Source of the DNA: a virus
Taxonomy: Duplodnaviria > Caudoviricetes
DNA length: 36,809 nt
Virus record (IMG/VR): IMGVR_UViG_3300032218_000799
Coordinates: 1-36,809 of that record
Direction: 5' to 3' (one strand)
In this document: piece by piece, positions 17,745-24,655 of the stretch
How the letters are laid out: the number at the start of each line of letters is the position of its first letter
Numbering within the stretch: the first letter of the stretch is position 1
Notes under the pieces: model-generated
The model's database searches: none
Told to the model about the DNA's origin: nothing
Seen by the model: the letters and a program-made list of their open reading frames with translations, nothing else
Translations under genes and position numbers: made by a program

Positions 17745-18205
17745 TGGCTGAACCAATCCGCCAAGTTGGTGGTGATGGTACCCGTGAGCAGTTAGTTGCC
17801 AGCAAACTATCTGAGATGTTTAATTGGGATTTCTTTCCTACGCCACGTTATTACTTTATAGATTTTTTGGTAAACATTAATCATGGTAATGGCTACGCCA
17901 ATTACATTGGTGGCTTAGAAGTTAAGTGGTTGAACAGGCCAGCAAATTCTGAAGTTAAATTTCCTTATCAGAAGTTGCAGCAGATATGGTTAACTGAACC
18001 AGCAACTGATAGACCAGATGCCTACAATCGTATTGTCATACGTTACAAGGATGGTTTATTGGTTATGCCAGCTTATGCTTTACGCTGCTTAGATCCTATC
18101 TACGGTTTAACTCGTGTTGATACCAACGAACATGATTTCAACGTACACTTTAATGCCACCATAGATTTCCCACAGTATCTATTGCCGGTGGTTATCAATG
18201 AGTAA
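17741..18205 (+). CDS. Putative PD-(D/E)XK-family nuclease
   Basis: RE...IDF...LEVK pattern. Confidence 0.5.
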   Translation: MMAEPIRQVGGDGTREQLVASKLSEMFNWDFFPTPRYYFIDFLVNINHGNGYANYIGGLEVKWLNRPANSEVKFPYQKLQQIWLTEPATDRPDAYNRIVIRYKDGLLVMPAYALRCLDPIYGLTRVDTNEHDFNVHFNATIDFPQYLLPVVINE

Positions 18206-18854
18206 CTGGCTAGATGAGGCTACCGATATAGCTTCACAGGTAGCTCGTGTGGTTCATCGTAAGTACAATACTTATTTTGATGTGTCGGATGTGCGCCAAG
18301 AATTATTGGTGTGGATCTTGCGCCGTGAAAGTAAGGTTCGTGTATGGCTAGATCCTAGCCTTACGATAGAAGAATATCGTGGTGGCGTAAAACAATTAGG
18401 TAAGACGCTATCTCGCCAGGCAGATAAGTATTGTCGCAAGCGTAAGGCTCAATTCCTGGGCTATGCAGTTGAAGATGAGGCGTATTACTCGCCACTTACT
18501 TTATCCGAACTGCTGCCATTCGTATGGGCTGATGTTGTTGCTACAGCTGATACAACCAAGCCACGTGTATCTGGTGGTGGTGCGCCGGCAGAAGGTGGCA
18601 ACTATGTAGTACAATTAATTGATATACGGAAAGCTATCGCTAAGTTAGATGAGATGGATAGGGATGTGCTTCAACTTAAATTTGAAAATCAACTTACCTT
18701 TAGTCAAGTTGCAGAAGAACTCGGAGTGAGTGATACTACTGCTCATAGAAAAGTAGATGGTGCGTTACGTAGATTGAATAACCACCTTGGTGGTCAGTCA
18801 CCGTTTACTGATGAGATACCAGAGGATCATGTGGTAGAGGTAGAAGAAGAATAG
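18198..18854 (+). CDS. RNA polymerase sigma-factor-like protein (region 4 HTH)
   Basis: DVRQELLVW (region 2-like); LTFSQVAEELGVSDTTAHRKVDGALRRL HTH. Confidence 0.8.
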   Translation: MSNWLDEATDIASQVARVVHRKYNTYFDVSDVRQELLVWILRRESKVRVWLDPSLTIEEYRGGVKQLGKTLSRQADKYCRKRKAQFLGYAVEDEAYYSPLTLSELLPFVWADVVATADTTKPRVSGGGAPAEGGNYVVQLIDIRKAIAKLDEMDRDVLQLKFENQLTFSQVAEELGVSDTTAHRKVDGALRRLNNHLGGQSPFTDEIPEDHVVEVEEE

Positions 18855-18878
18855 GTTTGGATAAGGGGAAGATCCAAA

Positions 18879-18914
18879 AGAAAAAACCACCGGTTTCTAA
18901 TCGGTGGTTTTTCT
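18879..18914. terminator. Bidirectional terminator between the convergent arms
   Basis: AGAAAAAACCACCG...CGGTGGTTTTTCT with T-tracts on both strands. Confidence 0.88.
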
Positions 18915-18955
18915 CTTTCCTGCTACAAGCCTGGAAGGGGTAGCGAACAGGAAAG
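18915..18955 (-). ncRNA. Candidate 3'-UTR small RNA hairpin with loop CCCUUCCAGGCUU antisense to the early-gene initiation motif
   Basis: Stems CUUUCCU/AGGAAAG and GCUAC/GUAGC; loop complementary to (CCU)UGGAAGGG. Confidence 0.4.
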
Positions 18956-18961
18956 GCGCAA

Positions 18962-19075
18962 CTAATCTTCCATTAGTCTATCATATGCTTCGTCCGCCTG
19001 ATCCCATATTGATGGTTCTTCAAGCTCATCATCTATCGCTGCCGGATCTCCGTTCATCCATCGTGGATCTTTCAT
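18962..19075 (-). CDS. 37-aa acidic mini-protein
   Basis: MKDPRWMNGDPAAIDDELEEPSIWDQADEAYDRLMED; AAGGA RBS; ATGA overlap. Confidence 0.6.
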   Translation of the reverse strand: MKDPRWMNGDPAAIDDELEEPSIWDQADEAYDRLMED

Positions 19076-20466: not shown

Positions 20467-20495
20467 AACATAATAAAATACCCCTAGATTGTCAA
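20467..20495 (-). promoter_or_regulatory. SigA-type leftward promoter for the whiB operon
   Basis: TTGACA (20495-20490), 17-nt spacer, TATGTT (20472-20467). Confidence 0.7.
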
Positions 20496-20514
20496 ACATC
20501 TAGGGGTATTATTT
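20473..20514. terminator. Terminator-like palindrome overlapping that promoter
   Basis: 13-bp inverted repeat AATACCCCTAGAT/ATCTAGGGGTATT flanked by A/T tracts. Confidence 0.7.
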
Positions 20515-21105: not shown

Positions 21106-21192
21106 GTTGAATCCTTCCAAGGTATCTAGTCTGACCTTAATCTAAGGCCAGATAACCGGACAGGATGCGAGATCCTGCCCGATTATCCGGTA
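21106..21192 (-). repeat. Early intergenic two-hairpin element D
   Basis: Long stem 21148-21190, second stem 21130-21152, TGGAAGG at 21119-21113. Confidence 0.75.
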
Positions 21193-21579: not shown

Positions 21580-21662
21580 GTTTATTCCTTCCATCCTTGT
21601 AACGATTACAAGGCCACCGGATAGGGGTTAGCCCTATCCGATAGTCCGGCAACAGTTAGCGT
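21580..21662 (-). repeat. Early intergenic two-hairpin element C
   Basis: Stems 21612-21646 and 21595-21613; TGGAAGG at 21593-21587. Confidence 0.75.
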
Positions 21663-22250: not shown

Positions 22251-22337
22251 GTTATTTTTACCCTTCCATAGGTTTATTCTGATCCTAATTTAGGACCAGA
22301 CCACTAGACAGGGCATGCCCTGTCCAGCAGTCCGGCA
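22251..22337 (-). repeat. Early intergenic two-hairpin element B
   Basis: Stems 22296-22335 and 22279-22299; TGGAAGGG at 22268-22261. Confidence 0.75.
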
Positions 22338-22487
22338 CTACTTGAGCAGCGGATCTATATTACTCCACGTCCATCCGTTACCTGTCCACCAAACATGCGT
22401 GGCGATTAGATAAATTCCGATAAGTAACGCGGTCCAGAATATGACGCGCGTTAAGGTCCGGACACGGTAATAGTTGCGTGATCTCAT
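22338..22487 (-). CDS. 49-aa single-pass membrane protein
   Basis: Basic N-terminus plus TM segment VIFWTALLIGIYLIA; ATGA overlap. Confidence 0.65.
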   Translation of the reverse strand: MRSRNYYRVRTLTRVIFWTALLIGIYLIATHVWWTGNGWTWSNIDPLLK

Positions 22488-22903: not shown

Positions 22904-22994
22904 AATTTATTACCCTTCCATAGGTTATTTATTCCGGCTAATCACCGGCCACCGGCCAGAATATCGCTACTCTGGCCGATAGTCAACGATTAGA
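22904..22994 (-). repeat. Early intergenic two-hairpin element A
   Basis: Stems 22947-22984 and 22934-22948; TGGAAGGG at 22920-22913. Confidence 0.75.
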
Positions 22995-23372
22995 CTACGC
23001 GTCCGCCATCAATTCGCCCAAGGTATTGGGCGAGTCTGCAGATATTGGGTCGGTACTCGTTACGTCAAACACGTAACGCCAAGAGAAGCGCATCCGTTCG
23101 CTAGTACCTTCGGCATCCGCCATCATGCCCATAGGCACCAATATCGCTAGGCCTTTAGATCCTTTCCGGACAATTCTTCCGGCCTTGCGCCATTCATGGA
23201 ATCCGGCGCAATTGGTGGCGCTTGGATCTTGCGAGAGTATCGCATAACAATTCTTGGGAGAGAATCGGCCTAGTAATCTGAAAGGTATTTCAGCTCCGGC
23301 GCTCTCCATTGCATCCGCTGCAATTCTTAGCTCTTGGATAAATTGTGCCTTGTCTTGCTTGGATCTTGCCAT
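22995..23372 (-). CDS. ArdC-like N-terminal ssDNA-binding domain protein (anti-restriction candidate)
   Basis: FSPKN..IL.Q.P.AT..AGFHEWRKAGRIVRKGSKGLAILVP...VFDVTST. Confidence 0.85.
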   Translation of the reverse strand: MARSKQDKAQFIQELRIAADAMESAGAEIPFRLLGRFSPKNCYAILSQDPSATNCAGFHEWRKAGRIVRKGSKGLAILVPMGMMADAEGTSERMRFSWRYVFDVTSTDPISADSPNTLGELMADA

Positions 23373-23547: not shown

Positions 23548-23601
23548 AATTTATTACCCTTCCAAGGTGTCTTACTTGTTGCATCCTTTGCAACATGTCG
23601 G

Positions 23602-23631
23602 ACGATACGCGCAAGAATTAGCCCGTGTCAA
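23602..23631 (-). promoter_or_regulatory. Major leftward early promoter
   Basis: TTGACA (23631-23626), 18-nt spacer, TATCGT (23607-23602). Confidence 0.8.
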
Positions 23632-23874: not shown

Positions 23875-24055
23875 TGTTGCGCCGGTGGTGTTGGATCGTG
23901 TCGGTGGTGGTTGCATCCGGTGTCGGTGCATCCGATGGGTGATCGGTGTCTGGTTGGTGCTGGTGGTGCATCCGGTGGGTGGTGTGCTATCGGGTCGGTG
24001 CCGGTGGTGTTAGCTTGGTGGCGGTGGGGATCGGTGGTGTGCTATTGGATCGGCC
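23875..24055. repeat. G/T-skewed low-complexity tract of iterated (C)GGTG(GTG)
   Basis: Roughly 20 GGTG units, TGCATCCG three times, GGTGGTGTGCTAT twice; very few A. Confidence 0.8.
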
Positions 24056-24655
24056 TAAGAGTATCGGCCTTGATAGTTTCAATAAATACGCCGGACAACA
24101 TGGAAGAACGGCCTACTTACCACGCAACACGGCCCGATACCTACACGATACGACTCGCAACACGCTCCGAACGGCGCACAATATCCGGACGGTTGGACAT
24201 TTCGCCCGTTTCCGTCCAAGTCTAAATGTCAGGTCAACCCCTAGGGTTTTAATGCCGGCGCACTCTTATACGTACTATCAACCAAAGTATTTTTTCTAAA
24301 TATAGCTGCCCAAACGGGGTAATATAAAATAAATCTTTTTGCTATAACTAGTATAAAATACTGACTATAAACAATGTGATGAACATCACACACTAAAGGA
24401 CGGGATAAAACCCAAATCCACCACCTTAGTATATATATACGGTAAAAAAAACCGCCCGTTTTAGTTCGGCTCTAGGCAATCTGAGCCTCAAGCGAAGTTG
24501 CCGTTGAGCCGAACGTAACAGCAGCCTTTAGGGCTGCTATTAATTGTAAGAGTTTAGGCGCTTAATGCGCCCCCCAAAAATACCCAAAGTATTACCCACA
24601 GGACGCTTTGCGGTGGGTGAGAACTAATCTTACCCACAGGAAAGATTTAACCCAA

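Follow-up and report, generated by a model that had tools for sequence, protein, structure and literature searches.

The temporal control of phage genes has mostly been ascribed to proteins, and RegB of phage T4, a protein nuclease, is described as ending early expression by recognising and cutting GGAG, a Shine-Dalgarno motif of early mRNAs (PMC3014915). Phages P1 and P7 produce a trans-acting RNA, c4, whose loop complementarity blocks a phage ribosome-binding region and which, in the account given there, governs a single antirepressor operon in a temperate phage and is tied to heteroimmunity (PMC12197685). In actinobacteria, the small RNA 6C (PMC5014011), or B11, base-pairs with the ribosome-binding sites of numerous mRNAs and thereby represses them (PMC10470900), and a pyrimidine motif in the 3'-UTR of the Staphylococcus aureus icaR mRNA is reported to pair with the Shine-Dalgarno region of its own leader and to block initiation (PMC3868564). 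Finally, cluster K mycobacteriophages and cluster EF Microbacterium phages carry the start-associated sequences (SAS/ESAS), over-conserved ribosome-binding-site motifs of non-structural genes, in many cases preceded by an inverted repeat and a SigA-like promoter (PMC3203893, PMC7302621, PMC11373665). SAS was described in 2011, when Pope and colleagues gave its role as unknown and recorded a single reverse copy in K1 phages (PMC3203893), and it was still called ill-defined in 2024.

The element studied here is a hairpin at the end of the leftward genes of an actinophage, with a loop complementary to a motif, TGGAAGG(G), at the starts of early genes. B11 is host-encoded and conserved in sequence, whereas this element is phage-encoded and its seed changes together with its targets. 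Where c4 serves a single operon, one seed would here address several early genes, and where RegB is a protein that cuts GGAG, an RNA is here proposed to recognise, through base pairing, a motif that is private and exchangeable. Unlike icaR, in which one mRNA pairs with its own leader, the seed is displayed on a loop and would act on several genes of another transcription unit. The leader motif resembles SAS in being over-conserved, in occupying the ribosome-binding position of non-structural genes and in having one orientation; however, it is unlike the 13-bp SAS consensus of Pope 2011, with which the motif of one relative (L153, GATAGGAC) shares only the core, and cluster K SAS belongs to a different phage family.

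No description of the hairpin element was found in the literature searched. The viral structured-RNA catalogue of Fremin 2023 gave no match in six supplementary files; as three large files fell outside that search, the motif may be catalogued there without a function. Nothing reached the Rfam gathering score in the window region or at seven related loci, and none of the 14 weak matches in the window belonged to the 6C RNA/B11 family. The c4 antisense RNA is processed from a tRNA-like precursor by RNase P; the C4 model did not match at the hairpin locus, and its only hit was a c4-2 match of 19.4 bits (cut-off 41) at 24448-24526.

The window analysed is the entire contig of 36,809 bases (36.8 kb; Caudoviricetes record IMGVR_UViG_3300032218_000799), and it encodes a WhiB protein, a transglycosylase, a sigma-like protein, a terminase and a portal, a gene set that marks freshwater actinophages (PMC10202952). 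Judged by the sigma protein, the closest cultured relatives are the Planktophila phages LanE43-AprF5 and AprE7, at about 30% identity, followed by the Streptomyces Beephvirinae at 24-26%. A leftward block (23547-18962) meets the rightward replication operon head-on at a bidirectional intrinsic terminator (18912-18882, or 18876..18913 with the U tract). The last leftward ORF (18962..19075, minus strand, 37 aa) ends with a stop at 18964-18962, and the sigma-factor-like gene (18198..18854, plus strand), which served as the anchor for relatives, is the last of the convergent operon. The leftward block is headed by a SigA-like promoter (23602..23631, minus strand); a second leftward SigA-like promoter (20495-20467, within 20467..20510, minus strand) has its -35 in the loop of an inverted repeat, 20510-20477, that is itself terminator-like (z -7.2). 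From its position, its SigA-like promoters and its gene content, we infer that the leftward block is early. Promoters of this TTGAC kind, whose spacers hold inverted repeats, are found again among relatives, in an ESAS-like manner. Degenerate CACC-rich direct repeats, possibly packaging or genome-end signals, were also seen in the long non-coding stretch that separates the early promoter from the terminase (23880-24060).

The first-pass annotation had placed a minus-strand stem-loop between the last leftward stop and the terminator, and exactly such a structure, hereafter H1, was found at 18955-18915 (18915..18955, minus strand), with a fold energy of -14.1 kcal/mol (z -3.0). It consists of a lower stem, an internal loop with a conserved C facing UUGU, a co-varying upper stem and a seed loop. 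The 'GG' first ascribed to the loop belongs to the upper stem: in the fold common to the family the loop is ACCCCUUCCA (18932..18941, minus strand), complementary to UGGAAGGG and closed by GCU/GGC. An extension of the pairing to the upstream CC of the leaders, through a bulge, had also been suggested; it falls because the GGC after the loop is stem, the bases following CCA varying among homologues and lying in the co-varying stem. Base shuffling of the 82-nt UTR gave CCTTCCA in 654 of 100,000 cases.

Relatives were collected through similarity to the sigma protein, through a second protein encoded nearby and through a pattern search, giving 254 sequences (the window and 253 loci, many of them redundant), of which 248 could be oriented. 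The terminator junction was present in 201 of the 248, and H1, called like the other hairpins by pattern and hairpin rules, in 129. These gave 36 distinct H1 sequences, 19 of them with CCTTCCA. In a MAFFT alignment of the 36, 86.9% of cells were paired against 68.7% after shuffling, and the covariation score was 0.513 against 0.195 (reached in none of 500 shuffles, with slid controls at or below 0.097); these statistics are to be read with the caveat that the set was chosen by a pattern requiring upper-stem pairing. All four upper-stem pairs varied on both sides, and because one pair reads UG (13 sequences), CG (10) or UA (7), the minus strand must be the RNA. H1 is a real, conserved RNA structure on the minus strand. 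Several clades do not have it, many relatives carry a second hairpin, H0, upstream of it, and in distant relatives a C/U-rich loop is found in the terminator itself.

A further hairpin, H3 (18856..18878), lies directly 3' of the last rightward stop, with the near-invariant loop CTTCCCC(TT) on the minus strand and GGGGAAG on the plus strand, on 22 different perfect stems that contain no G-U pairs. As a partner of H1 it was rejected, given that only 5-6 bp could form and that it persists where H1 is absent; no conserved target position was found for it.

Within the window, TGGAAGG occurs 11 times against 4.0 +/- 1.9 expected, a number that none of 100 shuffles reached. Five of the copies lie 7-11 nt before leftward starts, and the first-pass claim of 8 nt of complementarity to the loop at three early starts and 7 nt at two held in full. 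The 8-nt sites, TGGAAGGG, are at 23557..23564 (start 23547, 57 aa), 22913..22920 (start 22903, 139 aa) and 22261..22268 (start 22250, 195 aa, with PHROG matches that include a polymerase processivity factor), and the 7-nt sites, TGGAAGG, at 21587..21593 (start 21579, 128 aa) and 21113..21119 (start 21105, 129 aa), all on the minus strand. The motif was described as private to these genes, and it was indeed found at none of the 43 rightward starts checked in the window, many of which use AAGGAG/AGGA-type sites. When the starts of the window were ranked as targets, the five occupied ranks 1-4 and 7 of 59; rank 5 was start 19516, in the second operon. Opening the H1 seed costs 2.15 kcal/mol and the duplexes with the targets amount to -11.0 to -12.8 kcal/mol, with target opening costs of 0.95-4.2 kcal/mol for four of the five sites and 9.9 for that of 22250. 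Several early genes per phage do not carry the motif.

Four of the early leaders are preceded by inverted repeats. That ahead of start 22903 is long (22938..22993, minus strand) and overlaps a promoter-like TTGACT-17-TATTCT; the others, which are similar, stand ahead of 22250, 21579 and 21105. This layout, with one promoter-like match among four, may correspond to that of ESAS, and it is similar in many relatives. At the RNA level, long stable hairpins were predicted ahead of the same leaders (21107-21192, 21581-21662, 22252-22340 and 22905-22995; z -3.8 to -5.8), for which RNase III-type processing sites or promoter-operator repeats are a possible reading.

The anti-Shine-Dalgarno core of Actinomycetia is CCUCCUUU (PMC10783764, Table 1), and GAAGGG pairs with it using wobbles; the leader motif can therefore serve as a Shine-Dalgarno site. 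It is not an unusually strong one, since the five early leaders scored -8.0 to -9.1 kcal/mol against an assumed longer 16S tail, from which that of the host may differ, and several other starts of the window scored stronger against the same tail. Pairing with the host ribosome does not explain the differences in motif from phage to phage that track the loop. As a sole source of the motif, a weakening condition raised in the first-pass annotation, it fails on GAGAGAG and GACAGGA, which cannot come from the anti-Shine-Dalgarno sequence alone.

Such leader motifs, which also include TGAAGGG, CGGAAG, GATTAGG, CGAAAGGAC and GATAGGA, were each found opposite a matching loop in relatives. In L122 the loop ACCCTTCA corresponds to TGAAGGG at five starts; in L242, ACTTCCG to CGGAAG at three starts and TCCTAATC to GATTAGGA at one; in L058, TCCCTAATC to GATTAGG at three; in L197 and L092, TGTCCTTTCG to CGAAAGGACA at two starts each; in L107, AGTCCTTTC to AAAGGACT at three; and in L098, ACCCTTTC to GAAAGGGT at two. 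In addition, L248 pairs CTCTCTCTC with GAGAGAG (four starts), L170 TTCCTGTC with GACAGGAA (three), L153 TCCTATC with GATAGGA (three) and L099 ATTGCCTC with GAGGCA (two early starts).

The correspondence was assessed by permutation on 37 of 45 representative contigs, eight having been dropped for less than 4.3 kb of upstream sequence, after removal of two H0 calls inside an ORF; 30 of the contigs fell into 14 loop types, defined after inspection of the data, and seven were left untyped. When each type was represented by a single contig, matches of at least 7 nt to leaders of the same phage averaged 37.4 against 9.9 after shuffling, and those of at least 8 nt 24.2 against 5.0; in none of 200 draws did any of 2000 shuffles reach the observed value. 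Leader matches were found for 77 of 351 candidate early ORFs against 11 of 457 rightward ORFs, the ORF calls being mechanical and false genes included. By position, in 14 contigs, 96 matches fell on the 154 loop 7-mers and 12 on the 1586 others. The first-pass annotation had proposed to look for co-variation of loop and leader motif across related phages, and it was found under all three of these controls. The analysis thus shows an RNA structure with its strand, a seed that complements the leaders over their Shine-Dalgarno site, and co-variation of the two from phage to phage; loop-leader pairing is strongly supported.

Exceptions were also noted. No 7-nt match to an own early leader was found for the CCGTTC-type H0 loops of L111, L219, L218 and L089, for the H1 loop of L092 or for the H0 loop of L099, and by eye the loop of L166 had no matching leader. 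In L120, seven early leaders carry GAAGGGG, and the junction has no loop or hairpin; its loop may be elsewhere in the genome, beyond the coverage of the contig. L093 and L128 have a common 7-mer in three leaders and no loop. In the clade of L137, by eye, a TCCTATC loop lies farther upstream, outside the rule, with GATAGGA in two leaders.

The same controls bear on chance, or plain anti-Shine-Dalgarno bias, by which the leaders would be ordinary Shine-Dalgarno sites and the hairpin a part of the terminator. The wobble pairing and the leader energies given above agree with such a reading, as does the lack of the hairpin in several clades; against it stand the permutation, loop-position and rightward-gene controls and pairs that do not resemble Shine-Dalgarno sites, such as GAGAGAG/CTCTCTC and GACAGGA/TCCTGTC, so that it is largely refuted and hardly credible.

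In the tree built from the sigma protein, with 36 of the 37 contigs, contigs of different loop types are interleaved, which makes several independent switches of loop type likely, and the motif moves among three different hairpins. That movement weighs against a reading in which loop and leader motif are sites of one phage protein, as a DNA operator or for an RNA-binding factor, with complementarity as the trace of an inverted copy. Co-variation could likewise arise from a factor whose specificity changes, WhiB and a sigma-like protein are among the products of the phage, and Pope 2011 left open a protein or an RNA partner for SAS. However, an RNA-binding protein would require the same sense and not the complement, 96 of 108 matches are in loops, and the inverted copy co-varies within a hairpin loop, with G-U pairs on one strand only; a shared protein site is very unlikely.

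Fast diversification of the motifs, with the interleaving, would also be expected if the main targets lay in other genomes, either early mRNAs of a superinfecting relative, as in the exclusion exerted by c4 of P1/P7, or host mRNAs, the self-match being a by-product. Some loops are without a target in their own phage, the heteroimmunity of c4 offers a precedent (PMC12197685), and GTCCTTTC loops resemble the Actinomycetia anti-Shine-Dalgarno sequence of the 16S tail (PMC10783764) and could equally target host mRNAs. A genome scan aimed at the host gave a single weak, probably spurious match (L254). Yet even single-base differences in the loop are mirrored in the leaders of the same phage (L197 against L107, L122, L242), so that selection for self-pairing is needed, and foreign genomes as the main targets are unlikely.

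The arrangement recurs in cultured phages. In all four Streptomyces BF phages, the early strand of the region searched carries 8-9 copies of GG(G/A)GAGAG, nearly all of them before starts, and the antisense is confined to a single site, a hairpin loop immediately beyond the final gene of early type. The stems of this hairpin vary, its loop core does not, and three uncultured contigs fit the same pattern. The sites (L255:2540-2643, L256:2397-2503, L257:2737-2840 and L258:2771-2890) show a terminator-like hairpin followed by the hairpin with the loop CTCTCTCCCC, antisense to the early leaders; another conserved structured element was seen in the next gap upstream. In the Planktophila phages F5 and E7, GACAGGA occurs seven times each in the leftward block, some rightward genes use it too, and the rightward operon is headed by a stem-loop of about 20 bp whose loop reads TAC(C/T)CTCCTGTC. 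This long hairpin (L259:6150-6215 and L260:31630-31695), with a loop antisense to GACAGGAG, follows an AT-rich palindromic stretch at the head of the replication operon.

In cluster K, the reverse SAS copy of Adephagia (39.6 of 59.6 kb examined) was located at 58,685 in a hairpin loop, 90% unpaired, and the stretch around the loop had matches in 141 phage records. The gap between genes 92 and 93 that holds this hairpin is the apparent start of late transcription (PMC11373665). At 58,660-58,715 (L261:38660-38715) the loop is downstream of a motif, TTTAGACTC...GCACAACTGTGCCC, seen too in TM4, Pixie and other K phages, which is possibly the late promoter. Among eight homologous K sites, the loop sequence is kept in Anaya, Validus, LilPharaoh and Niklas, Hammy and Ekdilam carry CCTCCTTCC, and SirPhilip and ShedlockHolmes are without the loop. 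Co-variation predicted a variant SAS in Hammy; it was not found and the normal SAS is kept, so that the prediction failed there. An antisense loop was not found in the parts searched of TM4, Pixie, SirPhilip and AnnaSerena, or at the homologous site of ShedlockHolmes. Because of the failed prediction and of the other cluster K phages without the loop, an antisense-loop explanation of SAS is suggestive for K1 only.

The RNA predicted for the window is about 90 nt long, with putative ends at 18877..18968 (minus strand) and the bidirectional terminator as its predicted 3' end. It has the features of a small RNA, that is, a conserved structure with an exposed seed, complementarity to several targets with compensatory change and a 3' intrinsic terminator, the seeds being short, at 6-10 nt; H1 is probably a regulatory RNA. 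The first-pass annotation derived it from the transcript of the 20495 promoter. As an extended -10-like motif, TG-A-TAGACT (18975..18983, minus strand), precedes the hairpins, within the last leftward ORF, the RNA may instead have its own promoter. Among relatives, TGnTAnnnT was present in the 50 nt ahead of the first hairpin in 22 of 30 contigs, compared with 27 of 1140 background bins, a signal that comes partly from Pro-Asp-X-Ile codons shared by related genes and is absent in four close relatives.

The position of this motif is one of several points that bear on action in cis, by which read-through from the early promoter would give a long mRNA whose 3' hairpin folds back onto its own early ribosome-binding sites. 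In the phage family of the window the loops are indeed on the same strand as all targets and downstream of them, and the S. aureus icaR mRNA provides a precedent (PMC3868564). Nevertheless, the terminator-like hairpin 20510-20477 separates the two blocks, a single loop could not cover five sites in one molecule, the loop of the Planktophila phages is on the strand opposite the early genes and the hairpins are preceded by the extended -10 motif, all of which make action in cis quite improbable.

Co-variation is evidence of pairing and is silent on its sign, and the RNA might pair with the leaders to activate or stabilise them or to guide their processing. The conserved internal loop under the seed could bind a protein or a nuclease, and long hairpins stand ahead of the early leaders. 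The bases that the loop would pair with form the Shine-Dalgarno site itself and lie 7-11 nt ahead of the start codon, where pairing would compete with 16S rRNA, and a positive role is accordingly as improbable as folding in cis. Given that site, and given that B11 acts in this way in mycobacteria, repression in trans is the most likely outcome.

In the repression model, the RNA would either start at the extended -10 promoter inside the last leftward ORF or form the 3' end of the WhiB operon transcript, and it would accumulate as a stable terminator-capped molecule. Its loop would initiate pairing without Hfq, as for mycobacterial B11, and pairing in trans over the early Shine-Dalgarno sites would exclude ribosomes and hasten decay, giving a pulse of early proteins followed by shut-off, with the early genes turned down together. 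Since both leftward promoters look SigA-type, delayed negative feedback would fit better than the sharp early-to-middle switch first proposed. That an antisense RNA of about 90 nt, possibly from an embedded promoter, represses early translation is the reading that we consider likely. Such an RNA would resemble c4 in its manner of action and T4 RegB in its purpose.

About ten co-varying pairs of loop and ribosome-binding motif are unusually direct comparative evidence for a phage RNA acting on its own early regulon, and the same layout in cultured Streptomyces BF, Planktophila and K1 phages makes the idea testable now. The small scaffold with its exchangeable loop, maybe independent of Hfq, could become a gene-silencing tool for Actinobacteria. 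More broadly, and with clearly less confidence, we put forward the tentative idea that many actinophages barcode their early mRNAs in the Shine-Dalgarno site and read the barcode with a reprogrammable hairpin RNA, as an RNA counterpart of T4 RegB. Such a system offers a mechanism for start-associated sequences and would explain those of mycobacteriophages. Because the barcode diversifies along with the loop, superinfecting phages with a matching barcode may also have their early genes silenced by the RNA, which would drive an arms race of seeds.
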